Below are positions 14,431-63,155 of a DNA stretch of 64,000 bases, in pieces. Every line of letters begins with the position of its first letter. The first letter of the stretch is position 1. This DNA is from Macrostomum lignano. Taxonomy: Eukaryota. Where the stretch lies: the NCBI GenBank assembly GCA_002269645.1, contig NIVC01002285.1, positions 122,835 through 186,834 on the forward strand, read 5' to 3'. The position numbers and the translations under genes are program-made. Below the pieces are notes generated by a model. That model searched no databases. It saw only the letters and a program-made list of their open reading frames with translations, and was not told the origin of the DNA.

Positions 14431-14497
14431 GAGGGAGGATGGGGTAGGGGCACGAGAGGTGTGCGTGGTTTTCTTTCCCGGGTCTATATTTTCTAGA

Positions 14498-27480: not shown

Positions 27481-27506
27481 TAGATGTTTATTTCAATGAG
27501 GATAAA

Positions 27507-28181: not shown

Positions 28182-28387
28182 TCGCCATTAAAATGAAAAA
28201 ATTATCGTCTTGCTACTTGCATGCAAAATTTGAAAAAATCTGGGCGCGGGTTGTCCCTTTGACATTTTGGTAAAAGCATGCGGAATGTTGTTTTTTCCCA
28301 TCCGGGCTACAGCTGCATGCCATTTGCTGAGGCTTATATAAGGCACTAGTCCCACAGCCGCCACGAACAGCAACCTGGCTGACCGAG

Positions 28388-29738: not shown

Positions 29739-29774
29739 GTAATTAAAGTTATTTGTAATACGTAACTAACTTTT

Positions 29775-34025: not shown

Positions 34026-34056
34026 ACAACAGCAGCCGACGGGTGCCGACAAGGCC

Positions 34057-37461: not shown

Positions 37462-37499
37462 ACCACCGGTTCCTCCATGGCCGATCGCATGCAACACCG

Positions 37500-38770: not shown

Positions 38771-39639
38771 CGCTCTAATACAGGACATCAACAAGCTGAA
38801 TGCTCCACCAATGGTCACGCACGCCTCCAAGTTGAAACCATCACCTGATCAACTCCCGGTTGAGATATTTCTACCTCAACTCACCCGGACGCTGACTCAA
38901 GAACACCACAACCACCAACAGCCGCTGACAAAGACGGTCAGCAAGCAGACTGATGATATCCGGATGACAGGACCATGCCGCCGCCGAAGAAGTTGCCGCG
39001 GATTCGCAAGCGGAAGGCCACCTCTGCTGCTGACAGCTCGGACTCAAATACGTATCGTTGAAGCGATTGCGCAGGACCTCATGGAGGTCTGCAAGCCGCC
39101 GATAGAGCAGCTCGTGAGTCGTCCGTCTGGGCGAAAAGCGCCCACAAAGCCAAGAATGCGAGCCCCGCAGAGCCCGCTTTCAGCTTCTGCTGACGGCTCG
39201 GAGGAGGAAACTGATGACCTAGTGGAGGACCGCGATTTGTCACCGCCCTTTGACGCTTTTACCTGAAAAGCATCAGCTTAGATCGGGCGCTTTAGTGACT
39301 TCTTCAAAACCAAGAAAAACAAAAATGAACTATTGTTATGGTCCTATCTAAATGCTTGACCATTGATTTTTGCCTGGCTAGTTAGTCAGAAAGCTAGCTA
39401 GTCTGAAAACTAGTTAACCCGCGCTATTTTTTAACCAAAAGTTGAAGCAAGGACTACTTAACAACACAGGACGTTACACTTGCAAATATCCAAAGACACA
39501 TACATTCAAAGCGGCATGTTAGAATTCTGCCAATATTTGCAAGTGTAACGTCCTGTGTTGTTAAGTAGTCCTTGAGTTGAAGTTCAAATGCAAGTCAAAT
39601 AAACGTGTAACATCTCATTGTTTTACAGAAATCAAGAAA

Positions 39640-40234
39640 TGTGTTTTTCTTGTTCCTTGTCTCTTCCAGAGACGGCTGCAACATGTAGTGGGGGCTCGAT
39701 TAGTCACTCCACCAGGCGGGCAGCTGGATCTGTTAAAGTCTAAGCTAATTTCTGCCTAGCGGGAGTCAAAACTCTATCGTGGGCGCCCTTCGATGCTTAA
39801 AACCCGCTTTTGTGTTTGTTCTGTTAAGCTATATCCCAATGGCCGGGAAAGTAAAAATTTTTGGTTCCAATTCTAAAATTCAAGCAGTAAGGTGCCTGTG
39901 CTTCATAAACGAGCTATGCAGCGGTGGATTAGACTATGAGTCTGTGTGTGTGCAGACAAGTACTTATGCAGAAGGCCTAGATTCATCTGTCCGCACTCCC
40001 CTCCTGGAGTCCCTCTTTTCGGATACCACTACACTGAAGTTGGAGAGCGGCTATCGTTTAAGCATGGATAAGGAAAATTTCCCTATAGCAATCTCCTGCA
40101 GGCTTCAGTGCAACCCGAGGCTGTTCCTGAACCTGTTCTTTAGTCGGAAATTTATAGTCTGTGGTCCTCAAAATCTCGAGGAACTGAAGCAAGTGTTGAA
40201 GGTTTTCCAACATTTGCCCCAAGCAGCCGTCTAA
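39640..40234 (+). pseudogene. TATA-binding-protein-like gene, element A (stop and frameshift)
   Basis: KLYRGRPSML, KLYPNG, VQTSTY, ENFPIA, LNLFFSRKFIVCG; homologous to 53453-54025. Confidence 0.7.
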
Positions 40235-40286
40235 TTATTCATTTCAGCAAATTGCCGCCCAACTCCGTGCTCAGACTCGAACTTAC

Positions 40287-40983: not shown

Positions 40984-41199
40984 AATCAAAGCTTAATTCT
41001 TGAATATTTAATTTGTGCATACTGAGTCGACTACTCTGAAAGAAAAAAAAAATTTGCAACCATCATTTCATTATTGTCAAATAATGAAACCAAATCGGCG
41101 TTCAAGTTAATTTTTTACTACTTGTATTAGTAGAAAGAAAGTTTCCTGCTCCTAATTAACTCATGTAATACTTAAATCACAGCTCGTCGGCGGCAAATG

Positions 41200-41859
41200 C
41201 CACGGATTCAGTGCCGCGTTTGCGGCAAATGATTCGGAACCCAGGCAGCACTGCATGCGCATTCGCACGGTGCTTGTTTTCACCCTCTGGAATCGTTGAT
41301 TAGCAATCCGCCTAGTGGCTGGAATGCGGTTCTGGAAGAATCAGCGCTGCATGGAAGAGCTAATTTTCTAAAATTTATTCCCACTGCTGACGGCACTGGC
41401 AACGACAACAACAACGGGATCTCTGAGGTGCTCGCTTCACTTCAACAGCCGATCTACAGACTTTTCAGTATGTTACTGCAGCCAGATCTACTAATGCGAA
41501 CTTGCATTCATTTAAAGTGTAAGCTAAGTCGTCTGATGCCAGCAGCTGCTGCTGCTAGTGATGCCGACCAGCCAACGCTGCAACAACAGGAGATTTCAGT
41601 TTATTTCAATACCAATATCTTCACGATAACAATTGACGAAGAGTCTGCTGCTGCTGCTGGAGCTCTTCTTTCGCCCGACGCCTTTAACCAGTGGTTTTTG
41701 CGCGCTGTTGGCGATCTTGTCACTCGACTGGAAAATTTTCAAAAACAAGGCAGCAATTGGCATCTCGAGGCGGTGGAACAGGTTGATTTTTTACTCGCCC
41801 TGTACAGACGCTCTCGTGCGAGAGCGTCTGTACAGCGCGGTGCAGGAGCTGGAGCAACC

Positions 41860-41897
<38 letters not shown>

Positions 41898-44800: not shown

Positions 44801-45337
44801 CAGGCGCACAGCTCTCTGGAGTGCGCGCGCGTTCTCGCTGGCGATACCGACAGTCTGATGATGGCCCTGGTGATGCGCAAGTCGGGAGAAACCCCGTACG
44901 ACACTATTTTTAAGGACTTTGTGCAGCAAGGCCTTTTGGACACCAGCAACTACCCGAAGAACCATCCTCTCTACACTGACAGACACAAGGGTCGGCTGAT
45001 GGCGTGGAAGGATGAATTCGGCGGGCAGCTGGCTATCGAGCTGGCGTTTCTGCGGCCCAAGAACTACTCTTTTTTGAGGGCCAATGAAGTTGTGCAACAA
45101 GTGTCGCGCTGCAAGGGGGTGACGAAGACGGTTGCCCGACAGATTAAGCATACTGAGTATGTAAGAACTGTTAACGAGAGAAGCCTCTACTACGTTCAGC
45201 AGCGACGCTTTAGTTCGCAAAAGCAAGTTGTCTTTTTGCTCGAGCATCGCAAGCTAGCCCTAAGCTCTTTCGACACGAAACGTGCTTGGCTGGGCGCGCT
45301 CGCCTCTCTACCCTACAGCCACTGGCGGTTGAACTAA
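41200..45337 (+). pseudogene. Protein-primed DNA polymerase B (EndoVII type), element A, several frameshifts
   Basis: DCFCYA/GHY (OTU-like), YSDLET, DHCHLTGRPRAVLCCSCN, HNLKNFD, YLDANSLY, KLLNNSLFGK, AGDTDSL, RPKNY. Confidence 0.92.
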
Positions 45338-45615
45338 TCTATCGCTTTGACTTTTTTAAACCAAGTGTTGATGAGTGTGCGCTATGCCGTGATTTGACTA
45401 AATATAGCGACAGCGAAAACTTGGTCTACTACTAATCTTGCTAAACTGTTAGAGGCCTAGTCAATTTGTTTTTCTGCGGCATATACGAGGAGGGAAGTAG
45501 CTTGGGTGGCTTTAGCATTATAAGTAAAGCGAAAACGATATTTTAAAACTCTACAAGAAACTAACAAACACCTCACCCCAATCTCTGTTCCAGCTCTATC
45601 TGCACACTGCGCAAC

Positions 45616-46257
45616 ATGGACTCGACCGGCTGCTCTTCAGTGGACGAGGAGCTGCGAATCTTCTTGGAGGAAGCCGGAGCAAAGATTCCGCAACGGGCGA
45701 CCGAGCGATCGGTTGGCTACGATCTAGCCAGCTTGGAGAAAAAAACCATAACTGCACAAAGCTGGTGTGTACTCTATACCGGAATAAGTATCGATCTGCA
45801 AGACGGCACGTATGGTCGAATTGCTTCTCGCTCAGGCCTGGCTGCGCGCTACGGAATCGTTGCCGGCGGCGGAGTTATCGACCCAGACTACATCGGACAG
45901 CTGCAAGTGATTCTTTTCAATCATTCGACTTGTGACTTCAAGGTCGAGCCTGGCGACCGCATCGCTCAATTGGTTTTGGAGCGTGTCGCTACACCATCTG
46001 TTGTTGTTAATCGTGCAGGCAGGCCTGGGAAAAAGGAAGGAGAAGAAGTGAAGACCAGGGCGCACGACGAGGGACTAGTCAACGACGATGACAAGACCAT
46101 CCCTGTCCTCGTCGATGAAGAAGGGAACGAAGGACCTATCGAGCCGCCGAAGCGCATTCGCGGAACGGGCGGATTGGGCAGCACCGGAATTGGATCGCTT
46201 TTGCGCGGCGTAATGGGACCTGATCATGATGACACTAACAAAGCTAAACGTAGCTAG
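45616..46257 (+). CDS. dut: dUTPase, element A
   Basis: GYDL, GRIASRSG, GVIDPDYIG, GDRIAQL, RGTGGLGSTG. Confidence 0.93.
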   Translation: MDSTGCSSVDEELRIFLEEAGAKIPQRATERSVGYDLASLEKKTITAQSWCVLYTGISIDLQDGTYGRIASRSGLAARYGIVAGGGVIDPDYIGQLQVILFNHSTCDFKVEPGDRIAQLVLERVATPSVVVNRAGRPGKKEGEEVKTRAHDEGLVNDDDKTIPVLVDEEGNEGPIEPPKRIRGTGGLGSTGIGSLLRGVMGPDHDDTNKAKRS

Positions 46258-46400
46258 CACCGCAAACTCAAACTCTAATACTTTCTTGTTTTAAACAACT
46301 GCAAAATATACACTACCACCAATCAACGTAATAGTCAACAGATTGTATAAGCAAAACAAATTTCCCTACGAGCTATGACTTCAAAATATTACTAGCAGAA

Positions 46401-46837
46401 ATGGTAAGAGACCAGAGCAGGCACTTTAAAAAGAGCGCAAGAAAAACTAAAAAAAATCTCGAACTACTACTACTAGTAGTCGTAGAGCAAAACGGAATCA
46501 GCGACTACAGAGAGGAAGTGGTATTGTAAATTGGGTTATTAACCATTTGCCGTTTGAACTACATCTCCCGGGCTACCAATTCTGTGGACCGGGTACTAGG
46601 TTGAAAGAACGATTGGCGAAAGGCCAGACCGGGAAAAATAGGCTAAATAGGCTGTGTATGCTGCACGATAAGGCCTACGAGAAGAACTCTGAAACGAAAG
46701 ACCGTCTCGAGGCGGACCGCTTGCTGGAACAGGGCGCGCGAGAAATAGCCAACGATCCAAGCAGTGGTTTGGGTGAGAAACTAGCCGCCAAATTTGTAGC
46801 AAAGGTTATGCAAGTAAAGCAACAAGCGAGCGCCTGA
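46401..46837 (+). pseudogene. Basic N-terminus plus parvovirus VP1-type phospholipase A2 (PLA2X), element A
   Basis: LPGYQFCGPGT...LCMLHDKAY; 1-nt frameshift in an A-run near 46450; no intron. Confidence 0.85.
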
Positions 46838-46842
46838 GCTAC

Positions 46843-47539
46843 ATGGAGACAAAGCCGCCTATCTACGATTTGCGGCTCGCGCCTGATTCAACAATCATCG
46901 TGGCGGGGCCTTCGATATCTGGGAAGACAGAATGGGTTTTGCGTCTGAAAGAGTAGCCATGTTTAAGAAACCACCACAACGGCTAGTCTGGTGTCACGGG
47001 ACCGATCTTCATGACCAGGAACGCGGGAAAATTCGGGCTTGTTGGGACAACTCCGAAGGAATACATTTTATTCGGGGTTTTACGGGTGCATTGTTGGGGA
47101 GTTTACGATCGGGAGATCTTTTGGTTGTAGACGATCTGCAAAGTGAGATTGCTAAATCCGCCGACTTCACAGCTGTCTTCACCAAACACGCCCACCATTT
47201 CCCATTAAACTGCATATACCTATGCCAGAATCTGTTCAGCCGTTCAGACGCGGGGGCACGAACAAGAAGCTTATCTACAAGCTACATCTGTTTAACCCGC
47301 TCGGTACGAGATCGAACCGCAGTTTTGAATCTTGGGAAACAGATGTATCCAAAAAAAGTAACTATCTCGTCCAAGTCTACGAAGAAGCAACCGATGGAAA
47401 ACCGTACTCATATCTACTTATCGACTTGCGTCAGGATACGCCAGATTTCTTGCGACTTCGAACAGGCGTGTTTGCGGGAGAGCTGATGATAGCCTATGGT
47501 AAGCCTGGCAACAGAGAGCTAAAGGCGCCTGGGTTATAA
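46843..47539 (+). pseudogene. FtsK/A32-like packaging ATPase, element A (frameshifts)
   Basis: Walker A AGPSISGKT, Walker B LLVVDDL, YLCQNLF, PYSYLLIDL. Confidence 0.9.
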
Positions 47540-47588
47540 GCAAGCCATGTTATTTCAAGACTGAACCATCGCCACCAAGGAAACAAAC

Positions 47589-48121
47589 ATGAGCTTCTAC
47601 GTTTTTCTTCCCTCAAACGACAAAAGCTATCCATCCAACACTCCAAATGAGTTTCGTGTGCGATTGAAAAATTCTTTGAACCTAATCGGACGTTATGGGA
47701 CCGCGAACGCGTACGAGGTCGCTTTAGTCGAGCTTTTGTGCAGAGGTGCTATAAAAAACATTGGTTATGCTGCCTCCGATAGGTCACAGTTATTCGGTTG
47801 ATATTAGTCCACATCTTTCAGTGAAGCAGGCTGCTTTGACAAAATTTTGGCAGGGAGGCGACCTGGAAGTCTATCTGCTTTGTCGCCCGGAAGAGCGGCA
47901 GTACCTGTGGTATCTCGGAAACGGTGGCGCGAGTCAATTAGCGATCCGTTTACCTTCACATTTCATGCGTGTCTATGGCTTCGATCAGTGGAAAATAGTG
48001 CGCGGGAAGGATAGTGATTTCCATAGCATTGAATCTCTTACTCGGAGTCCACTCATTGGTGAGGAAGGAAGCTTTAAAAGTTATTACGCGAGAGCGAAAA
48101 GCTCAACTGAATACATAACCG
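47589..48121 (+). pseudogene. Minor capsid (penton) protein, element A, 3'-truncated
   Basis: MSFYVFLPSN...FRVRL...YEVALVEL; central part matches 61995-62825; runs into the inverted arm at 48122. Confidence 0.8.
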
Positions 48122-49842
48122 TTCTAAATCTTGTAAATATCAATGGTCTACTAATGGAAAGGGGGATGATAAATGCAGTCAAGACTGAAACAGTTGGTGC
48201 CAAGGCTGAAAATGCCACTAGGGGAACTGTGTCAGCTGTTGTATATACAAAATTTAGTGGGATTAAAACGAAGAAGGCAGTTGTAACAAGGGATAAAGAA
48301 GATGGGGGTGATCGCTCATTCCTACAGAATCAGTCAACCGCACGCTCCGTTCGATATCGGTTGGGTTGCTGGCCGTGATGACCCACTCTGTTGTGAAGAA
48401 TGAAGACGGTAAATATAGCCAATCCTAAACAAAGAACTTCACTTTCGATATAAGCTTAGACAGCAAGGGAGCTGTATCCGAGAGGATACACTCTAAAAAA
48501 GCGCAATCTCTATTGTATAGCAGTATCAATATAGCTTAACTTCTTAAATTTTGTTTGAGTTGTGAGCGAGAATCTAAATCATTTCGGACGCGCTGCTGAA
48601 GCTGTTAACGACCCTAGACGGGGCCGTTCGCGTTCGCGAAATGGACACCATATAGATACTTTATATTTTAATAGTTCGTCGCAATTTCCGGAGTTTGACG
48701 AGTTTCCGGATGCCGACTACTTAAATGAACTATGCCGGATCCCTGAAGAGGGTAAGTTTGGTACCTGCTTGGTTATGTTTTAATTTATCCTCATTGAAAT
48801 AAACATCTAGTGTTGCGACTTTCCTCCGCAGATGCCATCAGTCCTGAACCGCAGGGTGATCATGGACGCTGGGCACCGTGGACGTGGGTGTCGAGTGCGT
48901 GGACGTGGGCGAGGGCCCTGTGGAATAATATATATGGCGCTGCGGGCGGAGACAGCGATGTTGAATCTAGCCTTCAAAGTGATTCTGGCGAGGATGTTCG
49001 ACCGACCGCTGCGATTCTCGAGTCTTCCGTCCTGGGCGAGGGTGCCGTGGGCGGCGGAAGCGCTGTGCAGTCCGACTTGGTGAGCGAGCCTTCTAGACCA
49101 AGCGAGAGCGTCGCGGGGGGCGGCAGCCATCGTGAGATTGGCTCCGTCGAGGCTCGTGTTTGTCGACAGTCACGGGATGGACCTAGCCGGAGCGAAGGCG
49201 CTATGAGCGGCGACAATCCTCGCTGGTACCCATTTCTTAACCATCCTCACGCATCTCACGTCTACGCCCGACATCGCCCTCTTGATGGGCGCGGGCATGG
49301 ACGGGTGCGTAGTAACGGCGAGAATTGGGTAATCATCGCCGAAGAGCCTTCGCTTTATGGTCCATTGCGCATACTGGTTAGAGAGAATAGGCCTGGCCCG
49401 CCTATTCGACGGGCGACTTCTGACTCGGACTCGGGCCTCTGTGAATTTTAAGCATTGTGTTTACACGCCCGCCTAATAACTAATAACGTTACAGCCGTTA
49501 CAGAGAATGCAAGCCCGTTGCATTGAGCATGTGTGAATGTATGTGAAAATAAATATTAATCGCTTTCAGTGTTACTTCAATGCGATTATAATACCGTGTT
49601 CTTAATTTGTGCAATACTTAAGTTTCTATCCAATGCTTAATACGTATTATGTGGCACGGCAAACTTAGAACAGTGTTTAGATCTTACACTAGAACTAATA
49701 CGGCGAGCTTAAACCTAGATGTAGTAATTTTCTCTACGAGCCTTTGAGTGAATAACAGAGTCTAAAGACCAAGACAGTTTAACGATTAAGATTAACAAGA
49801 TTTCATTTCATACATGGAGTTAGTTGAGAATGAAAAATTATA
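48122..49842 (+). repeat. Right arm of the 1.7-kb inverted duplication
   Basis: Reverse complement of 26444-28168; carries copies of the three small ORFs. Confidence 0.95.
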
Positions 49843-50024
49843 AGTAGTAAGCGTTTTTTACGCCCATAGCTCGTTTTTACATGGCGAAATCAATAGGAAG
49901 TTCCAAGCACTAGTTCAATGGGGATACGTGCATAGCCTGTTTTTGCATAGCAAAACTAATACAAAGTTCTAGGTTATAGACGATGAATTTCCATCCTGCA
50001 CAGGCGCGTTACCAAATCTCGTCC
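49843..50024 (+). repeat. Polinton-type terminal sequence of element B
   Basis: AGTAGTAAGCG start; colinear with 24510-24691. Confidence 0.8.
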
Positions 50025-50249
50025 CCGTCATGTTCTTTCTAGCCACACTCTTTCTTCTACATACGTGGTCGTTCAATGCTACGACCGTCTGTGTCACAGC
50101 CAAATAAAAAAGGCACATACACACGCATCGCTCTATTGCCACAATGATTTTGTGAATCAGTTCGTTTGTAGATGAAAGCTTTTATATTTTTTGTCTAGAT
50201 AAAAAACTATCAGGTCAAGCTTGCATTAAAACAGTCAAACGCTAGCTTT

Positions 50250-50843
50250 TTACCGGCGGCGCAGTAGGGGTTGAAGAACATGCTTGAGAAAAAGGCTCAG
50301 AGAGGAAAACGCGCGCGAGAAAGGGCTGCTGCGAGCCCGACCATGTTGTCGCATCACCCAGTGGATGAACGAATTTAGATCCTTTCCACTAGCAAGTTTA
50401 AAAAACAAATAGAACAGAATCCAGACTCCACAGTGGGCGGTACGGGGATCCTGCACCGCATAACGCGTGTAACGCCAGTTTTTTGGATCTCCACAATTTC
50501 GGCTCATCCACTGGGAGATTTCAGGCAGCGGGTGCAAACCTAGCGGATCAAAGTATTCACCTATCCTAGCTCGTCTAACAGCGCCAATAGGGCCTGCACA
50601 GACCCAGACAGCAACCCAGTGTTTTCCGGGCAAATTCCTGGGGTCCGTGTTTACGATGAAAAAATAGTTACGCGTGTCTTGAAAGTACGGACTCGTGTTT
50701 AGAGTAGGGATCGTTGGTAGAGAATTGCTTGGGTAAACTCCCATAAAAACTGCATCAGGATAAATACGCAATAGTTTTAGGCAGACCGAGCGCAAAAACA
50801 CATTAGTTACGCCAGATAGAATAGTAGTGTTATCTACTTCCAT
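50250..50843 (-). CDS. Adenain-like cysteine maturation protease
   Basis: VNTDP...PGKHWVAV, EYFDPLG, VQ...HCG give the His/Asp/Gln/Cys catalytic set. Confidence 0.92.
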   Translation of the reverse strand: MEVDNTTILSGVTNVFLRSVCLKLLRIYPDAVFMGVYPSNSLPTIPTLNTSPYFQDTRNYFFIVNTDPRNLPGKHWVAVWVCAGPIGAVRRARIGEYFDPLGLHPLPEISQWMSRNCGDPKNWRYTRYAVQDPRTAHCGVWILFYLFFKLASGKDLNSFIHWVMRQHGRARSSPFSRAFSSLSLFLKHVLQPLLRRR

Positions 50844-51170
50844 ACAGATCCAGGTACCACGTCGCGGAACTCCGTCAGATGCAGCTGCTTGTCGAATAGT
50901 CCGCCCACGATGACGTTGTAGACTTTGTCCGTGGCAGTCGCGAAGCGTAGTTCCAATCGTACATTGCCCTCTTTATATACCTGTGCGCCAGCTCCGACAC
51001 CCACCTCACTGCCCAGTCCGAAGGCGTAGATAGTGTAGCCGGCTTTGTACTCTGCAATCGTGAACCCCAAGTCGCGGTTACGCAGATGCAACCCCAGCTG
51101 TTGCAAAAACCACCCGTACTCCAAAACGCAGTCCCCACTATCGCTGTAGTCGGTTTCGAGGGGAGTAGTA
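50834..51170 (-). pseudogene. Major capsid protein, C-terminal remnant
   Basis: EYKAGYTIYAFGL...GNVRLELRFATA...VIVGGLFDKQLHL..FRDV resembles Polinton MCP C-termini; sits directly upstream of adenain; 5' part missing. Confidence 0.7.
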
Positions 51171-51405
51171 GATAAAAATCGGACACGGAGGGTTTTTTTA
51201 AATACGAAAAATGTATGGTTGGTACATGGGCAATATACATGGGAGATAGCCGAAACTTCGGACAAATTTTCAACCCTCTCCCGATAGCAACTGGGGCGCA
51301 ATTTTCCTCTCTTCCACAAAGCGCAGACCTCCAGTTTCTCTTTCCCTCGCCGCCGACGCTAGTTGTTAAATTTCTAAAACAACTGTTCGTAAAGATAAAT
51401 TGCCT

Positions 51406-51584
51406 CCAAATCGTTCCAAATCGAAATTCCAGGTAAAGCATGCCACAGAACACAATGTCCAATCAAAAGGTCAGGAAGATAAAACTGACAACTTTTAAGT
51501 GAAACAGCTGGCCCCAAATCGCTCCAGATCGAAATGTCAGGGAAAGCAAGCCCCAGAACGCAATGTTCAATCAAAAGGTCAGGA
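51406..51584. repeat. Imperfect ~71-bp direct repeat, period 108, upstream of the gene X promoter
   Basis: CCAAATCG.TCCA.ATCGAAAT...CAATCAAAAGGTCAGGA at 51406 and 51514. Confidence 0.8.
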
Positions 51585-51746
51585 TGTTTGAACTTACAGC
51601 TTGATATGGCTTAAAAGCGTTTCGGGAGAAGTAAAGAATTCAGACGATTTGGGTGAACTATCCGGAAACCTTTTCAAAAAACAGTATATAAGGAAGTGGT
51701 GTTTTAGAATCTTCCGGAGCAGACCGAGGGAGACTAACCGACCATC

Positions 51747-52926
51747 ATGGCGTTTTTCGCTAAAGAAGAAGTCTTAAGCGCACAGCAGTTTGTTTCACCC
51801 GAGACGCGGCCTACAATCCATGTCGAGCCAGCTTCTTCGCCCAAGTTTGCCAACAACTGTCAGTTCCGCGCTCTCTCTTGGACTCCGGTGGGCGACAAGC
51901 ACGAGAAACTACCGATTCTACTGCAGTCTCAACAGCCGATTCTACTCTTTCGCGGTTTGCACCGAACAGACAGCGGTGCGGGCACAGAACACTCGGTCAA
52001 CGAAGGACGAGAAGCTATCGCACTTGGTTTTCAAGCCAAGGGCATTTGCCCTCAGCTGGTTTCAACTTTGAGGTAAATACAATCCGATTCTTTGGTTTGT
52101 GAACCGCATCCCAGGTTAGAAATTAAAGTTTACTGCAATTTTCTTACGTTGCTATCTGTCATATTCTTTCCAGAGCGATCGAGAAGTCGATCGAGAAGGC
52201 ACTTCACCAGCAATCTGACCGAATGGGGCTCATTAGACTCACTAAGAGTCCTGACGCGAGCGGTGCCAACCCAATTACCTGGATCGGCATCAAGCCCAAC
52301 TATCCATGCACAACATTCTCCACCAACGAGGGCAGCCGCACAATCCAAGAGGTTTCGCCCCGAGACTTCAGCGAGCGAAGCGGACTCTACCAGATCACGG
52401 TGCAAATCACTTCGCTCTACCTTCCGAAGGGGCGCCAGCCTGGCGACTTGCCGCCTGCATCCGATCTCTGGTGTGGCTGTCTGATGGAAACACTACCGGC
52501 CTGATAGGGAACCTGCAGGGACCTCTGTCCGAGTATCGGATTGTGCATGAACATAGCAACGAGGAGAAAATTTCAAGTTTGCCTACTCCAAGTCTTCTCA
52601 CTGCCACCGGCAAGAATCGAAGTGAGAGCAGCACCACGCCGAAGAAGAAGAGGAGAACCTCATCACCACCGCCGCCACCAAGCAAGAATTCGAAACGTCC
52701 AAGGCCTGCCGCGAGCGCTCCTAAGAACCAGCCTGCTTGCAAAGGTGGACCAGCAAGCGATCCCGACTGGGCTGAAGTACCGGCAGTCAAGAAGCTCGTA
52801 AGTTCGCCTACGGTTCAGCCGGGAAAGCGAGTCGCCTCTAAGGATCTCTCGTACGCCAAGCAGCTAGCTGGAGCTGAAGCCTCGAGCAACAGATCCTCCG
52901 ATTCGGATTGCAGTCTGTTCGCTTAA
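51747..52926 (+). CDS. Gene X of element B, two exons, possible ssDNA-binding protein; one frameshift near 52470
   Basis: TATATAAG at 51685; intron 52073-52173 joins frames (TLR|AIEK); C-terminal PKKKRR and an acidic/Ser tail. Function is inferred. Confidence 0.55.
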
Positions 52927-53452
52927 GCTCCAACTGGTGTCATTGCTGCGAGGGACTTTTTCAGCATGTCTGACGTCTCGCACTATCATAAACTTTAACT
53001 ATTTCTGGCAAATTTTTAGTAGCAAGGACGAGCACCTGAATATTCGTAAACATTTAAATAGATCGGCTCGCCTTGGATTCAACTTCCTCACATGTTTTAA
53101 AGCATATAGCTCGGGTTTTCTAGCCTATCCTTTTAAACACAAATTGTTATTTTCATTAGATGCTCTACGTCGTTTACATCGCTTTTCTTCTCGTCAATCT
53201 GCTGCTTGGCTTTTAGACTGCAAGGCTGGTTTACTCGCCTTAGTGCTTATCTTTAGCAATTCGCCTGCCTACCTACTGCTATCCGCGAGACATTTAGCCT
53301 GACTGCAATAGCGCTTTTGCTAACTACCCGACTTAATATTATTATAATAAACTGATGACCAAGTTCTTTGTCTTACCACGACTTATTCAGACTTATTTCT
53401 GGTTTGAAATTTTCAGAGAATTGTTCAGAGTGTCGGGAGCGCACAACTGGAT

Positions 53453-54025
53453 TTGAGCGGTTCCGATGGACTAGATTTATTTCAGCTTCAGCTAAAACTG
53501 CTAAAAAGCGGATTCAATTGCAAACTCTATTTTGGACGACCCTCTATGCTGAGAGTTGCTACGAGTGCTGGCTATACTATGCAAATCTATCCTGGTGGAA
53601 AAATTACAATTTTTCGATGTGCATCAAATCTCAAATTAATATCCACACTCCTGGCAATTCACAATTCTGTTTTTAAGCTGGATTTTAATTCAATACGTAT
53701 TCAAACCTCAACATATGTTGGTGAATATGAATTTTATAGCGCAACAGACAGATTTTTTATGCTAAAATTAAGAATTGGATGTTTCATTGGTTTCACTGTG
53801 AGCTACGATGCAGAAACTTTTCCTCAAGCCGTGCGATTGCGCTGCAGCTGGAATAAACGTTTGTTTGCAAATTTGTTTTGTTCAAAAAAGCTGGTCATAA
53901 TGGGCCCAGCAAATGCCCAAGAACTCTCCTCTATTTTATCATGTATTGAAACATACTTAAAGCTTTCGATTCCTAATTCAACGCATAATATCTTGCAGTC
54001 AATCGATCCTATATCCAACAACTAG
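53453..54025 (+). CDS. TATA-binding-protein-like protein, element B
   Basis: Two TBP-like repeats: LDLFQL...GRPSML...QIYPGGKITIF, and IRIQT...SYDAETFPQAV...ANLFCSKKLVIMG (cf. SYEPELFPGLI...LIFVSGKVVLTG). Start uncertain; ATG at ~53356 is out of frame. Confidence 0.75.
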   Translation: MSGSDGLDLFQLQLKLLKSGFNCKLYFGRPSMLRVATSAGYTMQIYPGGKITIFRCASNLKLISTLLAIHNSVFKLDFNSIRIQTSTYVGEYEFYSATDRFFMLKLRIGCFIGFTVSYDAETFPQAVRLRCSWNKRLFANLFCSKKLVIMGPANAQELSSILSCIETYLKLSIPNSTHNILQSIDPISNN

Positions 54026-54034
54026 TAATCTGAA

Positions 54035-54714
54035 ATGGCAAATATCGTTTTTGCACCGAGCGTCTTCATCCTTGAAGGACTGTTGGGAGCGGGCAAATCC
54101 ACCGTACTGCATAATTTGGCACTACGATCAAGACTAGACAACTGGAGGAAGCGTGCTCATTTTCTGCCGGTGCAAATTTTTGCCGCAGCGAGGGTCCTTT
54201 TTGCGGCGCCCTGGAGAAGTTTTATTCTGGTGAACTGTCAGCATTTGCTTTTCAAACGTTGGTGTACCAAGAGCTGATGGGACGCGACATGGCCGCAGTT
54301 CAATTTGCGACAAACGAGGTGAAGGAGGGCCGCCAGCCGATTGATCTGATAGTGATGGACCGACACCTACGATCCGGAATTGCCTTTTCAAATCTGTTGT
54401 ACAAACAGGATCGGTTGACTAACTTTGAACTGAATCTGATGATTCGGTTGTATGAAATGTTTACCAACTGCTTTCAATCTGATGCCACACTAATCTATCT
54501 GGACATCACACCCGAGCTTGCACTGGAGCGCATTCAACAGCGAAACCGAGGTGGGGAGCAGCACATTACACTGAGTTATCTTGAACAACTACGGGAGGAG
54601 CTGCATGCACAGTTTGCTCTTTTCAAAACTGTGCACAAGATCCGAGTGCTGCCAGAGACTACTCTTGAGGATGTTGTGGACACAGTTTGCAAGATTATTA
54701 ATCCTTCTGGCTGA
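54035..54714 (+). pseudogene. Deoxynucleoside kinase family, element B (one frameshift near 54160)
   Basis: EGLLGAGKST, AFQ, VMDRH, IYLDITPELALERIQQRNRGGEQHITLSYL. Confidence 0.85.
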
Positions 54715-54949
54715 GTGACTCGCGTTTTGACTCGCCTTAATTGCTACATGAAGACAATCTGAAATGTGATTTAATAAAACAGTTGGCCCTTGATTATTCG
54801 ATTATTCCTTGACCAGCATCAAGGAACAAGTTGGGAATTCCCTACTTGTTGGCCATGCCATCAAAGCGCGTTCGTTCTTTTTTAATTCCATACTGCATTT
54901 TAGTCCTAAAAATCATCAAAATTCTTGCATTATTTGTTTAATATTAACC

Positions 54950-55718
54950 ATGATAAAAGCACGTTTTTTAAAGAAAAAAAAATTGTTATTCCAGCCAAGA
55001 GCTCGCTGCCTGGTTTGTCGAAAGACCTTCCGCAATGTGGCTGCGCTGCATGCTCACTCGCATGGAGAATGCTTTGCGCCAGATCGACTGTTGGAGGGGC
55101 CATTCGAGGAGCTTCAGGCGCACCCACCAGACGGTTGGTCTGTTCACCTGGAAGAAAGTGCGCATCAGGGGCGAGCCAACTTTCTGCAGTTTGTTCCTAA
55201 TTCCGCTGAATCTCCATCGCAAACATCCGCCACCACCGACGACCTTCTACCTGCCGACAAGCTGAACCAGCTGCGCGCCCCAATCTATTGGCTTTTCAAT
55301 ATGACTTTACAAAAAGGACTGATGTTGAGAACATGTCTGCATGTCAAGGTGAAGCTGTTTCGGATGCTGGCGGATTTGCGGCAACACCCCGATCTCTCAA
55401 CAGGCGCTTTAAATTCACCAGCAACTGAAATAATCTCTGCATATTTCAACAGTCACATGGTTACAATTTCACTGGATAAAGAGGGCACCGGTACTGGCGA
55501 ACTGTCTGAGGAGAGTTTCAACGACTGGTTTATGCGTGCAATCACCGAAGTGACAAGCAAAATTGACAGCTTCCAGAAACGTGGCAGTGGTTGGAAGTAT
55601 GACAGCATTGAACAGCTTGACCTGATGCTATGCCCCTATAGGAAGTCTCGTTCTCGGCCAAGCTACAACCCGGGCAGTAGGAATTCCACAGCGGCAGAGC
55701 AACAGCTGGGCGGTGGTA

Positions 55719-55753
<35 letters not shown>

Positions 55754-58700
55754 GCCAGAACATTTAAAGTCCCGTTGTCGGTTGGATGCAAGAGAGGAGC
55801 CGTAATATTTTTGAAGCCAAACAATAATCGGCAGCCTAACTGCTTCAAGTATGCAATCGTAGCAAGCATCTTTTATGCCCAAGTGAAGCGTCCTCATTTG
55901 AAGAGCAGCTATACAGAACATTTGCGAGAATTGGATTTTGGAACTAAATTACAAGTCGGATCAGCGAGACATGCCAAATGCTCATATATTAAATTTTTGA
56001 ACAAAAATCCAGGGTTAAGTTTGCGTGTATTCGTTTGGGATTACGAAGCAAAGACTGCCGTGCATTACTTTTCGCGCCACTGTTCCCCGGAGACAGCCCG
56101 CTTCATGGCAAACTGTTTGTTCATCCCACCATATGGCAAATTCAAGCTGGGCCACTACATGCCTGTTCGTAATTTGAACTCACTTCTAAGCTGCCGAGGC
56201 AAACGACGGCGTGTCTGCCCAACTTGCCTGGCTCCGTTTTCGGAAAAAATATCATGGGACTTCATTCTGAACGAGCACCAATGCATCGGAGGGTGCGAGA
56301 GCCAGTCCTCGCTCCGCTGGATGTCCGAGCCGCTGCCACAAATACGGGAGGTGCGCAGGCCGCCAATTGAGAAGATGCCTCTGCCGGAGAATGCTAGTCT
56401 TGAGTTTACCGAACATGCTGCAAGGCTGCCGGCGCTGTACGTAGTTTATGCCGACATGGAATGCCTATGTGCACCGCCGGACGCCAGCGCTCCACATGTG
56501 GGAGCCTCTCAAAAGATTCGCGAGATCCACAAACCGCTTTGCATCGGTTATCGGGTGGTGGCCTGTCCCGGAGTTGAAAGCCGGCTGCCTTCACTATATG
56601 GCGAAAGGTCCGCCTGTTCGGTTATCTATTCGCGGCCCAACGGTGGAGATGATTGCATTGGGCTGTTTTTGATCAAGCTCCGCCAGCTAGCAAGCGAGAT
56701 CTACCGACACGCCAAGGATGAAACATATGTTCCTTTGCTTAAAAAATATCTTCATCTGACGGACCGTGTCGAGAAGCGGCGCCACAAGCATTGTCAGCTA
56801 TGTAATCGCGTTTTTGAGCTTGATGAACGCCAAGTCCTGGATCACGATCATCTTACTGGCCTGCCTAGGGGAGTTTTGTGTGTCAGCTGCAATCGCAAAT
56901 TGAGCTTGAATCGCCACCGGCTGTTGGTCTATTTTCACAACCTGTCGGCATATGATGGCAAGTTTATTGTTCGCCAAGTTTACGAAACCTTTTCCGGTGA
57001 AGAAGTTAAACTTTATGTTTTGCCTGAAAATCGCGAGCGATTCAAAACGTTCTCTATCAAGTTCAAGCTGCCTGCTGCTGATGGGCAGCACCACGTTTGG
57101 TTTGAAATCTGCTTCAAGGACACTTTTGCGTATTTACCAACTAGCCTAGCAAGTCTAGCTGAACGCCTGCTCCCTTCTCAGCTGGTGCACACAAGCAAAC
57201 TATTGGAGCAATACCCGAGACTACGACCGGAGACGTTGCAGCAGAAGGGAGTTTTTCCCTATTCGTTCCTTGATCGAATGGACAAATTGGACAGCGTAAA
57301 ATCTCTGCCAGCAAAGGAGAGGTTTTTCAATAGACTAACAATGCAGCATTGCTCTGACGCCGACTACGCTCGAGCCAAGGCCAGCTGGGAGGAATTCGGC
57401 TGCCACACTCTGCGTGACTACACTACTGCCTACCTGCGATTGGATGTGCTTTTGCTCTGCGACGTGTTTGAAAATTTCAGAAATAATGCAATCAAAGAGT
57501 ATCAAATTGATCCCGCTCATTTTCTTGGCTCTCCAATGTACAGCCTGGCGGCGTGCTTGCTTCAACTTGCAGAGCCAATTCAACTCTTCACTGATACAGC
57601 CATGTATGCTGAAATTGAGAGCTCTGTGCGCGGCGGTTTCAGCTTTGGGACACGTCACGTAACCACAGCAAATAACTCGTTGGTTTCGCTCATTCGTCAA
57701 GATTTGGACAGGGACGAGGGCAACTTTGCGAGCCTGAGGGCAAATGCACCAGAAAACACCTTTTTGGTTTACTTGGATGCAAACTCGCTCTATTCTAGTT
57801 GCATGGTACAACCTCTACCATACAAGAACTTTCGTTGGCTTTCTGCTCGAGATGTGAATCGCATACCATGCGATAACACCCCCGGCGCAGGCTATTACCT
57901 CGAAAATCCGCAAGTGAAGAGTCAAATGCTAGACTGGCTGACGAAGTTTTGTTCTGAGGAGCGAGGAGCTTATTTCACAGTCGATCTGCATTATCCCGAG
58001 TTTCTACACGATAGCACTGCTGACCTCCCACTGGCGATTGGGCACGAGATTGTGAGAGAAGATCGGCTGACGGATCAAATGCGGCAAGATTGGACAGCAC
58101 TTCAACGACAACTGAACCCCGAGCGATATGCCTCTGCCAGCTGTTACCAAGACGTGAAGGCATTCAAGAGCCCTGCGCGCAAGCTCATCGGTTCTGTCGA
58201 GCACAAGCGCGAATATGTGTTGCACCACCGTGCATTGCGACTTTACCTCGAGTTGGGGATGCGAGTCACAAGGGTCTATCGCGTCATCTGTTTCACCGAG
58301 AAGCCAATATTACGCTCTTACATTGAGCGCAACATTAGCCGACGAATAGAAGCCAAGACGGAATTTGAACGTGATCTGTTCAAGCTACTCAACAATGCTT
58401 TGTTTGGCAAGTTTCTGCAACGTGTTCGTGACCGATTGTGCTTCAAGATGTGCACCGACGCTGCAAAGCTGGAGTCCTATGTCAGCATGGAAAGCTTCCT
58501 AGATGTTATCATTTACAACGAGAATTTGGCGGGAGTTAGTCTATCTCCTCGTCAAGTTTTGCTTAACAAGCCAATTATCATTGGCGCGTCAATTCTGGAC
58601 ATTGCCAAAACTATGGTTTACAATTTTTATTACAACCATGTTCAGGCTCATCATTCGCTTTCATGTGCACGCGTTCTGGCAGGCGACACCGACAGTCTGA

Positions 58701-59230
58701 TGATGGCACTGGTGATGCGCAGACCTGGTGACACGCCCTATAATTCATTGTTCAAGGACCTGATCGCTCAAGGACTACTTGATACCAGCAACTATCCGCC
58801 GGATCATGCCCTTTATTCTACCCAACACAAGGGTCGGCTGCTTGCATGGAAAGACGAATTTGCTGGAGCGGTTCCAATCGAGTTGGTATTTTTACGACCA
58901 AAGAACTACTCTTTTCTCTACGTTACCGATACGATTCGGCAACTCTCTCGATGCAAAGGCGTGAGCAAGCAAGTGGCTCGCACGTTCAAGCACACGGCCT
59001 ACCTCTCGGTCTTGGAGAAGAGAAGAGTGATGTATGCAAGCTTCGCTCGAATTGCTTCTAAGAAGAAAGTTGTTTTTCTCATGGAACAGAAGAAGCTCGC
59101 GCTCGGATTTTTTGATACAAAGCGCGCTTGGACAACCCTCCTTGCTTCTCAACCATTCGGACATTGGCGGCTGCGAGCAGCATGCGAAACGCAGGCAAGA
59201 ATTACTTTCTTGATACTGTTTAGCATCTAG
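54950..59230 (+). CDS. Protein-primed DNA polymerase B (EndoVII type), element B, intact
   Basis: Uninterrupted ORF; N-terminal CLVC...HAH zinc finger, NCFKYA/GHY OTU-like dyad, YADME, DHDHLTG..RG.LC..CN, FHNLSAYD, YLDANSLY, KLLNNALFGK, AGDTDSL, RPKNY. Confidence 0.95.
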
Positions 59231-59657
59231 ATGATACAGTAGCATCTTTAGCTTAATATTTTTTCGTTTTTTTAATTTCAGGCAACAATCGATTCGGAAA
59301 AGGAGGACTATTCGATGGATGAAAATTGACTTTTGCTTTGTACATTAACACCATATATGCCAGGCATCGTGTGTAGACTAGTCATCATTTTAGCATGGTG
59401 TCCTATCTCTTGAGGTTCACTCATTTTCGTTGGCTGACACAGCGCTCTAGAATAAATGTGTATTGAATGACTAACGAACGTGATTGGTTTTTCGCTCCTT
59501 CTTTTGCAAGAGTATATAAGCCCAGATGTTGAGACTTTAGTTTAACTTTTGTCCGAAAAATGCAGTCGTCCTCTTCGCCTAGCCAACCGAGTTTAAGAAG
59601 TAGGAAAAGCCAATTATCGAAACTGTTCATTTCGCCATATACACAAACGAGTGGTTT

Positions 59658-60428
59658 GTGCAATTTCCCAGTCCCGCCACCAACTCCCACTCCGAGAATG
59701 CAAACAAAAAATTTATTTTCAATGTTTCAGCCAGTACAATGCAGCGCCAGCAGCAAGAATCTCTAAATCCAAGTGACACTAGCAGCTGTAAAGACGCAGC
59801 GCCAGTTCCGCTACGCCTAAATCCCGATTGGTGTCAACAATACCTCGCAGGCTCACCACCGATCGAGAAAAATCTAATTGTCCGCCTTCTCAGCAATCAT
59901 GCTGCGGTTCCGGCCAGACAGACAGAGGGCTCTATCGGGTATGATCTGACTGCAGCCGAGACCAAGACCGTCCCTGCGCAGGGACGAGCGATTTTTGATA
60001 TTGGGATTTCAGTCCGAGTACCGGCTGGCACCTATGGAAGAATCGCTGGGCGCTCTGGTCTGTCAGCGTTTCACGGAATCACGGTGGGCGGCGGAGTAAT
60101 TGACCCAGACTACTGCGGACGAATTACGGTGATTCTCTTCAACCACGGCATACGAGACTATCATGTTCGCATCGGCGAAAGGATTGCGCAGCTGGTTCTG
60201 GAGAAGGCGGAAATCGCTCCGGTCAAGGTAGAGAACTACACTATCGCTCGCGGGAAGAAGCGTGAAGCGCTGGACAACCAGCGTCAGTTGTCAGCGTCAG
60301 CATCGTCAGTTGCGGAGACCGCCAAGGTTGATGAAGAAGAGAAGATGAAGAATCTGGCGGACGCAATCGTTCAACAAGAAGCTTGCAAGCAGCGGGGCGA
60401 TTCAGGCTTTGGCAGCACGGGGATGTAA
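59658..60428 (+). CDS. dut: dUTPase, element B (start uncertain)
   Basis: GYDL, GRIAGRSG, GVIDPDYCG, GERIAQL, RGDSGFGSTG. Confidence 0.93.
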   Translation: MQFPSPATNSHSENANKKFIFNVSASTMQRQQQESLNPSDTSSCKDAAPVPLRLNPDWCQQYLAGSPPIEKNLIVRLLSNHAAVPARQTEGSIGYDLTAAETKTVPAQGRAIFDIGISVRVPAGTYGRIAGRSGLSAFHGITVGGGVIDPDYCGRITVILFNHGIRDYHVRIGERIAQLVLEKAEIAPVKVENYTIARGKKREALDNQRQLSASASSVAETAKVDEEEKMKNLADAIVQQEACKQRGDSGFGSTGM

Positions 60429-60494
60429 AGATTGCAGGTTTAAATTGCGCGCAAGAGCGGTAGTATCTGGAAATTACTGCAGTTCATTCTTTTT

Positions 60495-60708
60495 TTCAAG
60501 AATAAACAATTCTGCATGCATATAAAGACTATAAGTTATGCTCCAAAATTGCAAGGAACAAATATATCTGTATCTGAATCCTTAACGCATATAAGCTATC
60601 TTTTATTCAAGAATAAACAATTCTGCATGCATATAAAGACTATAAGTTATGCTCCAAAATTGCAAGGAACAAATATATCTGTATCTGAATCCTTAACGCA
60701 TATAAGCT
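60495..60708. repeat. Perfect 111-bp tandem duplication upstream of PLA2X
   Basis: TTCAAGAATAAACAATTCTGC...GCATATAAGCTA repeated at offset 111. Confidence 0.95.
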
Positions 60709-60760
60709 AAACTAAATTATTTGCTATTGGTTTTCAAGTCTTTACTATTTAAGCAACAAA

Positions 60761-61254
60761 ATGTACGCATCAAAACGCAGAAAAGGTGTCTGCAAGCAAA
60801 AGAGGAAATCTGTCCCGAATCGGAAATCGCGCTCTAGCAAACGTGTTCAGAGAGGATCTGGGATTGTAAACTGGTTAATCAATCACCTACCATTTGAGGT
60901 CCACCTCCCTGGTTACAATTTTTGTGGACCGTAAGTGAGCCAAACTTTTTCATGATTTAGTTTGACACTGTTCTAACTAGGAAGTATTAAATTCGCTCTT
61001 AATTAAGGGGCACGCGGTTGCGAAAACGGCTTGCGGAAGGACAGCGAGGGAAAAACCGGTTGGATGATCTTTGCCTACTACATGATGTTGCATACGAAAA
61101 GAGCTCGGACACAAACTCTCGTCTGGAAGCTGATCGGTTGTTAGAAGCCGGAGCTAGAGAGATTATAAGCGATCCGAATACTGGGTGGGGAGAACGCCTT
61201 GCTTCAAAATTCGTGGCTAAGGTGATGCACGCTAAGCAGCGATTGGCAGCCTGA
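60761..61254 (+). CDS. Basic N-terminus plus parvovirus-type PLA2 (PLA2X), element B, two exons
   Basis: Exon 60761-60930, intron 60931-61007 (GTAAGT...CTAAC...AAG), exon 61008-61254; splices to LPGYNFCGP|GTRL...LHDVAY. Confidence 0.88.
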
Positions 61255-61260
61255 ACACAA

Positions 61261-61967
61261 ATGGAAACTTTCAATCTGCAGTTGGCACACGATTCCTCAA
61301 TCATCTTGGCCGGACCATCAAACTCTGGCAAAACTGAATGGGCGCTGCGTTTGCTGCGCGAACGAAATTTGTTATTTAAGCAAGCGCCAACGCGTCTCGT
61401 GTGGTGTCATGGCACGGACCTGAGTCCTGGTGAACAGCACCGCATTCGTTCAAGCTGGGAGGAGGGCGGGAGCGGGCAGCATAATTTGATTCGAGGATTT
61501 CCGCTCGAGCTTATCTCTCAACTTCGCCCACACGATTTGCTGGTTGTCGATGATCTCCAGAGTGAAATGGCCAAGTCCCCCGAATTTACAGCAATTTTTA
61601 CAAAAATGCCCACCACACACCACTAACTTGTCTCTATTTATGTCAGAATCTCTTTCATCGTTCTGATGCTGAAGCGCGCTCGCGAAGCCTCTCTGCTAGC
61701 TACATCTGCCTGACCCGAAATATTCGCGATCGAACGGTTGTTCAAAGCCTAGGGAAGCAAATGTTTCCAAAGAGGAGCAACTTTCTAGTTCGTGTCTATG
61801 AAAACGCAACTGACAATAGGCCCTATTCATACCTGTTTATTGATCTGCGACAAGAAACTCCCGACTTTTTAAGGCTTCGTACTGGTATTTTCCCGGGTGA
61901 CAAACAGCTTGCGTACACCTCTGGTAAAAGCAACTCTGTTTCACTTGATTTTATAAGCAATCCATAG
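61261..61967 (+). pseudogene. FtsK/A32-like packaging ATPase, element B (1-nt deletion near 61607)
   Basis: AGPSNSGKT, LLVVDDL, YLCQNLF, PYSYLFIDL. Confidence 0.9.
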
Positions 61968-62000
61968 ATTGCACTTTGCTCCTTTGTAGAAATTTTGAAA

Positions 62001-62987
62001 ATGAGTTTTTATGTGTTTTTGCCTTCGAATGACAAGAGTTATGCAGATAATTCACCCAGCGAGTTTCGAGTCCGGCTAAAGGATCCACTGAATGTTGGAA
62101 CGCGCTATGAAGTAGCACTGGTTGAGCTAATCTGCGGAGGGTTTCCTGCTTCGGCTGCAAAGGACTCTTCGTTAGATAAAAAGGAAATTGTCTACTATCA
62201 AAGAGACGTGCAAACGTATTTTTCTTCAACAGCACCTCGATTTGTGAAGTTGTGGTCCCAAGCAAACTTGGAGGCATATCTTTTGTGGAGGCAAGCGGAG
62301 GCGGGCTCGGGAGCAAAAATCACATATCAGTGGTTCCTGCGAAACGGTGGTAGCCGATCGGTTCATGTGGAAATTCCAATGACGTTTCTCAGTACATTTG
62401 CCCTAGACGAGTGGGTTGTGGTTCGAGCGGGGATAGGCAATGAAGAAGGTGAATGGAGTGAGGCTTCTCTACGGACTTTGGAAGAGGTTTCAGCGAAGAT
62501 GGATAGATTGAACGATAAGTATACTATGATTTTTAATTTTGTTCTGGACCCATATCATGCTGTGAAATTTTTGGGCGATGGAGAACGCATGAAATCTCTA
62601 CAAAGTGGTTCAGTGGACGACGCTCTGAAAAAAAATGTTTGGAAGCTTGTGCACCCGTGGACATTTACCATACAATATTTGCTCCGTGAGCCGTCCGGTG
62701 CTGGGACGACAATAGCAAGCAGTATATGTATTGCTACACTGACATCATCGACTATCAGCCCGTTGGAAGCACATCTGTTCCACTGTTGCGCGTCGTGGAT
62801 TTGCAGCGGAAGGGACACGAAGTAACGCATGAACATAGTTCCTTGACAAATCCTTACTATGTTGGAGTGAATCGTCAGGCATCAGCGAGATTCAATTCGA
62901 CTGACTGATCAGCGTGGCAAAGGAATACAATTTCAACCGGGCTCGCATACTGTGGCGGTGCTCCATTTTCGTCCTAGAATTGACTAG
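62001..62987 (+). pseudogene. Minor capsid (penton) protein, element B (frameshifts in the 3' third)
   Basis: MSFYVFLPSN...YEVALVEL; YTDIIDYQPVG...PLLRVV; LTDQRG...VLHFRP. Confidence 0.85.
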
Positions 62988-63155
62988 GTGACTAATTATA
63001 AGCAAACTTTGGGGTTGAGTATGATTTGACCAATATTTAAATGCCTTTATTAACAGAAAAAGCTAGAGAGCCTGCTCGCTTTCTAAGTGTGCCATTTTAT
63101 TGCAGAGTGCGGCCCGCTTGAAAGATAAGCACCAACGCCGCAATTTCTGCAAAGC

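Follow-up and report, generated by a model that had tools for sequence, protein, structure and literature searches.

The Maverick copies of the window and their TATA-like boxes

The 64,000 nt stretch analysed here (the window) is the terminal part of contig NIVC01002285.1 (C2285) in the 764 Mb host genome of Macrostomum lignano (G000). It contains two copies of one Maverick/Polinton family, copy A (~28300-48100) and copy B (~51600 to the contig end), in which a TATA-like box stands ahead of structural genes and an early gene encodes a protein resembling the TATA-binding protein (TBP). Copy A was split by long terminal repeat (LTR) elements and rearranged, and copy B was cut off by the contig end ahead of the integrase and major capsid protein (MCP) genes. 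The gene order of this lineage, designated lineage I, was taken from sister loci and is X, TBP-like, deoxynucleoside kinase (dNK), PolB, dUTPase, PLA2X (named after the available text of PMC8502044), ATPase, penton, pX-like, a further small gene, integrase, core, MCP and protease. The protein-primed PolB expected of adintovirus-type Mavericks was present (Pfam DNA_pol_B_2, E 2e-25), as were the integrase, MCP, ATPase and protease; the ATPase and protease were in the window, while the integrase-like and MCP frames were found in sister copies L046 and L053 and not in the window. For the pX-like gene, the family A relative matched Adeno_PX (E 0.003).

All of the TATAAG-type sites listed in a preliminary description of this DNA were present at the positions given there, on the + strand (Table 1). 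That description had placed the motif 49-60 nt before the ATG in both copies, within dissimilar spacers, and both statements held: the distances in copies A and B respectively were 51 and 60 nt for gene X, 55 and 60 nt for PLA2X and 54 and 49 nt for penton, and a gapped global alignment of the spacers gave 40-57% identity. The LTRs and a further element, E1, used TATAAA-type boxes as had been reported (five LTR boxes read TATAAATA and the E1 box TATATAAAG); TATAAGC was also found antisense in two LTR copies, at 29326 and 22403. The site at 48449, which had been counted among the boxes of element genes, was found to lie in an inverted duplicate of the left end of copy A (48122-49845 corresponds to 28168-26441) with no gene identified behind it. 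The rearrangement of copy A consisted of the left end and protease region (26441-28168; 48122-51163) repeated in inverted orientation after a truncated penton gene, and L072 had the same structure. In copy B, the PLA2X box was present a second time at 60590, the product of a 111-nt tandem duplication, and TATAAGC at 59515 lay 45 nt ahead of an ATG that is itself upstream of dUTPase.

Conservation of the late box across lineage I

Use of the TBP-like frame as a query gave 67 matches in the host genome, and the flanks of 25 loci were taken. Five independent families with complete structural modules were compared (A, B, F3, F5 and F6); F4 was left out of the counts as it was near-identical to F3 (MCP 100%). 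TATA(A/T)GC preceded the PLA2X, penton, pX-like, integrase and MCP genes in 25/25 slots, mostly at distances of 41-61 nt, with the F3 pX-like site at 86 nt. The MCP box was 124-165 nt upstream and was kept in 5/5 families; in three it lay within the match to the core gene. The core gene was preceded by TATAAGT and the dUTPase gene by a variant box, each in 4/5 families. The preliminary motif, TATAAG(C), was real but too short. Among 34 TATAAG sites, base 7 was C in 26, base 8 was A in 27 and base 9 was A in 26, and two slots carried TATATGCAA; the box is therefore TATA(A/T)GCAA, with a degenerate base 5.

The structural modules of the five families (41,470 nt) contained TATAAG 39 times in the sense orientation and once antisense, against an expectation of 7.6 +/- 2.5 (maximum 14 in 100 dinucleotide shuffles). 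TATAAGC was the top 7-mer of these modules without any prior (28 vs 1.9 expected). TATA(A/T)GC occurred 37 times in them (3.4 expected) and 0 times in the 35,085 nt of the module from X to PolB (X, TBP-like, dNK and PolB). The box is very probably a real late promoter element, and the link between this promoter-like sequence and the TBP-encoding Maverick lineage is well supported by its conservation, spacing, strand bias, module restriction and the controls described below. The boxes also flag gene starts in these elements.

Table 1. Boxes and genes of Maverick copies A and B, in window coordinates; functional labels of boxes are putative
Feature	Position	Strand	Remarks
Canonical-type box TATATAAGG before gene X, copy A (early class)	28335..28343	+	
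TBP-like gene, copy A	39565..40234	+	5′ part out of frame
Variant box TATAAGTAA (TATAAGT) before dUTPase, copy A	45519..45527	+	97 nt upstream
Late box TATAAGCAA before PLA2X, copy A	46346..46354	+	55 nt to ATG 46401; slot filled in 5/5 families
Late box TATAAGCAA before penton, copy A	47535..47543	+	54 nt to ATG 47589; 5/5 families
TATAAGC in inverted duplicate of copy A left end	48449..48455	+	Mirror at 27841, minus strand
Canonical-type box TATATAAGG before gene X, copy B (early class)	51685..51693	+	
Gene X, copy B	51747..52504	+	GT..AG intron near 52072-52172
TBP-like open frame, copy B	53408..54025	+	Begins at splice-acceptor-like site near 53416
dNK, copy B, in pieces	54035..54714	+	Pfam dNK
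Protein-primed PolB, copy B	54950..59230	+	Pfam DNA_pol_B_2
Box TATATAAGCCC before dUTPase, copy B	59513..59523	+	Matches canonical and late patterns alike
dUTPase, copy B	59739..60428	+	Pfam dUTPase; copy A = 45616-46257
Late box TATAAGCTA before PLA2X, copy B	60701..60709	+	60 nt to ATG 60761
PLA2X, copy B	60761..61255	+	From sequence; copy A = 46401-46838
TATAAGC inside PLA2X, copy B, 97 nt before ATPase	61164..61170	+	1/5 families, doubtful
Packaging ATPase, copy B, with frame break	61261..61920	+	
Late box TATAAGCAA before penton, copy B	61952..61960	+	49 nt to ATG 62001
Penton-like minor capsid gene, copy B	62001..62990	+	Label from position and preliminary description; Pfam: no match
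Late box TATAAGCAA before pX-like gene	62997..63005	+	44 nt to ATG 63041; 5/5 families

Gene X and the early class

Gene X is an unannotated early gene that lies beside the TBP-like gene in every family of lineage I. It had been grouped with the other boxed genes, and a box was indeed present at the right distance, but the boxes of copies A and B were the canonical TATATAAG and did not belong to the late class. The corresponding box in the other four families was TATAAAA or TATAAATA. Judged from these sequences, the gene X promoter is of a canonical, early type. The box of copy A (28331-28344) was palindromic (GCCTTATATAAGGC-like) such that TATAAGC was present on the minus strand as well, and a divergent promoter is possible at this position. 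The intron of gene X was found as a spliced joint in contigs of 4/4 runs examined, none of the sequencing runs listed for the host being on record as RNA; the early module is therefore transcribed.

The TBP-like protein of lineage I

Single-sequence Pfam and PDB searches with the TBP-like frames of the window gave no match. A Pfam match was present for three relatives of the protein, and a profile of 11 relatives matched 35 PDB chains, 35/35 of which were TBP. The predicted structure (mean predicted local distance difference test score, pLDDT, 83) had TBP in all of the top 40 Foldseek rows (template modelling score, TM, ~0.6-0.7), and HHalign to host TBP gave 96% (E 3e-9). On this modelling the product is a true TBP fold, a two-repeat saddle. 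At ~190 residues the lineage I protein corresponds to a bare TBP core, and close relatives (E below 1e-30) numbered only 4 among 1.84 billion representatives.

Relative to host TBP, the second repeat kept the Phe-Pro, the second Phe and the acidic stirrup; the first repeat appeared to have lost one Phe, had Tyr in place of the other and was more polar. The four intercalating Phe and the conserved DNA-face residues of TBP were not all retained, several face residues being polar, on a mapping to yeast TBP numbering. The first repeat of TBP contacts the 3′ half of the box, which is the half changed here.

In 5/5 families the TBP-like frame started at a conserved splice-acceptor-like site, without a start codon (53390-53420 and its homologues), and the first exon of gene X differed from it in phase. 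F5 comprised ~25 near-identical copies (L008-L030, L033, L085); in those read (L008, L033, L039, L085) the TBP-like gene was kept while dNK and most of PolB were gone, and MCP was also present on many F5 contigs. F5 looks like a recently amplified defective family. In F6 (L062:3740-5146 and L068:3772-5190, both on the - strand) the TBP-like and dNK genes occupied one open frame of ~470 codons, the corresponding frames in other families having 337-360 codons, and this represents either a fusion or merely the lack of an intervening stop.

Host promoters and other Mavericks

The motif was compared with host promoters and with Mavericks in which no TBP-like gene was detected, where equal frequency would count against a box specific to these elements. 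Both comparisons mostly favoured such a box, the boxes there being canonical apart from one before the core gene of L223. TATA boxes were found in 13/20 upstream regions of host histone genes, and all at the proximal slot were of the TATAAA or TATATA types. Among 81 Maverick loci of other hosts, no TBP-like match was found below E 0.4. The top 6-mer of these control loci was TATAAA, and TATA(A/T)GC occurred 12 times in the sense and 42 times in the antisense orientation. Of 49 non-redundant control loci, 44 had usable MCP starts; the motif nearest to MCP was TATAAAA in 37/44 and never TATA(A/T)GC. The per-gene survey used the ATPase, pX-like and MCP rows, the integrase, penton and protease rows being dropped for mis-set starts or boxes lying outside. 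An excess of TATATAAGAG in control MCP genes (35 sites) was not counted, as it probably reflects Tyr-Ile-Arg codons. The control loci were mostly partial, mostly from one related group and on the opposite side of the MCP tree. Neither type of control was wholly free of the motif, and the exceptions are weighed below.

Element E1 (2223-17745) is flanked by 124-nt inverted repeats and contains PolB and a LINE-like (long interspersed nuclear element-like) insertion; capsid, integrase and TBP-like genes were all not found in it. It was rejected as a TBP-less control, since in the DNA read from E1 and two relatives PolB was present but capsid and TBP-like genes were not. The host genome gave >100 PolB matches. 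The LTR element inside copy A (34057-39266) contained frames resembling env, which gave a weak match to a viral fusion glycoprotein (E 0.004).

Two further Maverick lineages with their own boxes

A Pfam TBP search of the host genome, in which 150/330 candidates were scored, revealed the host's own TBP and a paralogue of it, along with divergent copies that recurred many times. Among the divergent copies that were fetched were Mavericks of a second lineage (lineage II), with MCP ~30% identical and a second TBP-like gene (Pfam TBP, E 1.6e-21). An MCP profile retrieved 86 relatives. Lineage III was reached through an MCP search of the host genome; it carried a third TBP-like gene with E 9.5e-5, just under the cut-off. 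A well-supported branch of a quick MCP tree, made without bootstrap, had all three lineages on the same side, and each had a long stem. P0008 and P0018 were among the metagenomic MCPs closest to these lineages.

The top box of lineage II was CTTAAGA (22 vs 2.4 expected in four loci) and that of lineage III was TATAAATA (13 vs 0.3 expected in two loci). These boxes were mostly 41-60 nt ahead of the ATGs of integrase, penton, ATPase and other genes, and each lineage's box was at background level in the other lineages. Some small left-end genes of lineages II and III retained TATATAAG. Unlike in lineage I, the TBP-like gene of lineages II and III was itself behind the lineage box. A distinct TBP-like gene together with a distinct box in each lineage suggests that each reads its own late promoters. 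A proline of TBP favours T at base 1 of the box, according to the available text of PMC12529657. Lineage II has Ser in place of this proline and its box often begins with C; the proline is also gone in lineage III, yet T is kept there, so the match between proline and base 1 is not clean.

Lineage II opens with a PC4-like gene (L105:2530-3255) behind a canonical TATATAAG box, and this gene possibly encodes a second transcription factor. The lineage III loci L113-L118 contained integrase, penton, MCP, protease, ATPase and TBP-like genes, with no PolB match within 20 kb around MCP, and a Fic-domain gene was present in one lineage III locus.

Position of the transcription start

The positions between the boxes and the start codons were examined for ATGs. 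Those from +7 to +27 held 15 in 693 positions, and ATGs were rarer between +33 and the start codon, at 9 in 1401 positions, with P 0.004 for rows that are non-independent. This distribution fits a start near +30 and not inside TAAG. One X6 contig began 26 nt behind the penton box and one X10 contig 41 nt behind the gene X box; these ends were not used, as contigs cannot show starts.

Proposed mechanism and alternatives

We consider it probable, from the sequence comparisons, that TATA(A/T)GCAA acts as a TATA-position core promoter of the late genes and is read by the element's TBP-like protein, acting with host RNA polymerase II (Pol II). Host TBP would first read the canonical box ahead of gene X, and the early module of X, TBP-like, dNK and PolB would then be made. 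The TBP-like protein would recognise the G6-C7 box, one that host TBP should read poorly, and would direct Pol II to it, so that the genes for the virion, packaging and integrase are switched on from starts ~28-33 nt downstream of the box. In this scheme we infer the binding, the start position, the timing and the use of Pol II. The available text of PMC2396422 gives TATATAAG as a strong and TATATGAA as a weak box of yeast TBP. If the scheme is true, the TBP-like protein would prefer TATAAGCAA over TATAAAAG, CTTAAGAA or TATAAATA. The preliminary description had proposed a private transcription circuit read by the element's TBP-like protein; its promoter-like box, linked to the TBP-encoding lineage, was borne out, but the reader is a candidate and gene X is not included. 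As gene X lies outside the circuit, an early-to-late switch describes the system better than a circuit of all genes.

Several observations weigh against a dedicated reader. A box preceded ATPase in 1/5 families only, and the protease had TATAAGG in 3/5 families only, at doubtful sites that are Tyr-Lys codons inside MCP; the core-gene sites overlapped Tyr-Lys codons likewise. In L223, a Maverick that is complete, has terminal repeats and lacks a TBP, TATAAGCAA stood 36 nt before the core gene, the other five of its six boxes being canonical, and TATAAGG preceded the pX-like gene in 4/19 control loci; G6 boxes can therefore occur without an element TBP. One histone upstream region (L136) had TATAAG further upstream. 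Lineage and TBP presence are confounded in the control comparison, and no capsid-encoding TBP-less Maverick was found in the host genome among the 96/486 MCP candidates scored. The lineage III box is canonical, so a TBP-like gene need not bring a private box, and the TBP-box pairs compared were three only. With one intercalating Phe of the four apparently gone, the lineage I protein may bind DNA weakly or not at all. Additionally, no splice joints within late genes or into the TBP-like frame were seen in contigs, an absence that carries no weight for the late genes.

Some of these points would be accommodated if the core promoter were real and the box were read by host TBP or its paralogue, which we regard as unlikely. 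Each lineage would have drifted to a weak TATA variant that left its late genes quiet until replication raised the copy number, and the TBP-like protein would have another role, such as decoying TFIIB, NC2 or Mot1. The TATAAGCAA before one gene of L223, the canonical lineage III box, the Phe apparently lost in lineage I and the possession by the host of TBP and a second TBP-family gene all favour this. However, if many promoters are to arrive independently at a single non-canonical 7-9-mer in each lineage, a lineage-specific reader is needed; three of the first six bases of CTTAAGA do not match the TATA consensus, and the host histone and LTR boxes are canonical. The reader could also be another element protein, either X or, in lineages II and III, the PC4-like or other early genes, the TBP-like protein then being no more than one member of a small viral pre-initiation complex. 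Gene X adjoins the TBP-like gene in every lineage I family, lineage II has its PC4-like gene, and herpesviral TBP mimics require five partners (available text of PMC12529657). This is improbable given that all three boxes are TATA-like and at TATA distance, and that the TBP-like gene is the one early gene found across all three lineages.

The two remaining explanations make no use of a TBP. TAAG-type initiation, inside the motif, is known from baculoviruses, and TAAG is contained in both TATAAG and CTTAAG. The box could on these grounds be the late promoter of a helper DNA virus, borrowed as in virophages and polinton-like viruses, one of which shares the early motif of its helper (available text of 10.1101/2022.07.28.501842). 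The TATATGCAA variant and the lineage III box lack TAAG, (A/G/T)TAAG overall was not enriched (102 vs 130 expected), ATGs were tolerated just behind the box and gene X is spliced, all of which makes a helper promoter very improbable. It is just as hard to credit that the motif arose by chance or as a coding artefact, from Tyr-Lys codons, A+T-rich spacers and common descent. The core and protease sites are Tyr-Lys codons and the families share ancestry; against this, the sites were mostly intergenic in spacers 40-57% identical, the strand bias was 39 to 1, TATAAG was used in only 8/34 Tyr-Lys pairs of long frames, and other lineages had different boxes. An artefact is largely refuted by the shuffles, the strand bias and the codon count.

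Beyond a late box read by the TBP-like protein, each TBP-like gene in this branch of Mavericks may have changed in step with its late promoters, as lock and key, an extension that we put forward tentatively. A single host would then contain three mutually orthogonal late programmes (TATAWGCAA, YTTAAGA and TATAAATA), with one small protein each, and these would be natural altered-specificity TBPs, a herpes-like early-to-late switch having evolved on its own in a genome of 15-20 kb. The three TBP-like proteins and host TBP should in that case each favour their own box among TATAAGCAA, CTTAAGAA, TATAAATAA and TATAAAAG. Such a natural series of TBP specificity changes would be informative on TATA recognition and might supply orthogonal promoter parts for Pol II. 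With the late box defined and a candidate for its reader, the timing of capsid-gene expression and the viral cycling of animal Mavericks become testable.

Comparison with known systems

A search of full-text literature, by which subscription journals were largely not covered, found no paper in which a Maverick TBP is paired with a box of its own. The elements share PolB, integrase, ATPase, penton, MCP, protease, PLA2X and pX-like genes with the adintoviruses, Mavericks and Polintons described in PMC8502044 and 10.1101/697771. The main texts of these two papers contain the word 'promoter' 0 times and describe no late box or TBP link; 'TBP' is a figure-legend label there, given to related elements from non-animal datasets. 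TBP-like proteins of giant DNA viruses also have the viral TBP fold (the BFVD matches included Heterosigma akashiwo virus and an asfa-like B263R homologue), with only 7-17% identity to the query. Giant DNA viruses mostly encode their own RNA polymerase, whereas no polymerase subunit encoded by the Maverick element was found.

The closest parallel in mode of action is ORF24 from KSHV (Kaposi's sarcoma-associated herpesvirus), a beta/gamma-herpesvirus TBP mimic that acts at TATTWAA. As far as the available texts of PMC12529657 and PMC6541308 go, the systems have in common a virus-encoded TBP fold, conventional TATA boxes for early genes, structural genes behind a minimal altered TATA box and a predicted DNA face that is more polar. 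The restriction of the altered box to structural genes was also found here (37 structural, 0 early). The Maverick elements had neither the TATT motif nor a large ORF24-type protein, and their TBP-like protein is without the Pol II-binding and C-terminal domains that those texts give for ORF24. For the five partner proteins of the herpesviral system, no homologue search by name was made, and the element has few candidate genes. The KSHV box differs from the canonical one at base 4 and the Maverick box in its 3′ half (G6-C7), and acidic residues of the second stirrup, reported missing in ORF24, are partly kept (D/E) in the Maverick protein. By analogy, the Maverick system appears to work like ORF24/TATTWAA without being a member of it. 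The polinton-like virus PgVV-14T likewise has a shared upstream motif on its genome; in the available text of 10.1101/2022.07.28.501842 the motif was taken over from a giant virus that acts as helper, whereas the Maverick lineages each have their own box and their own TBP-like gene.

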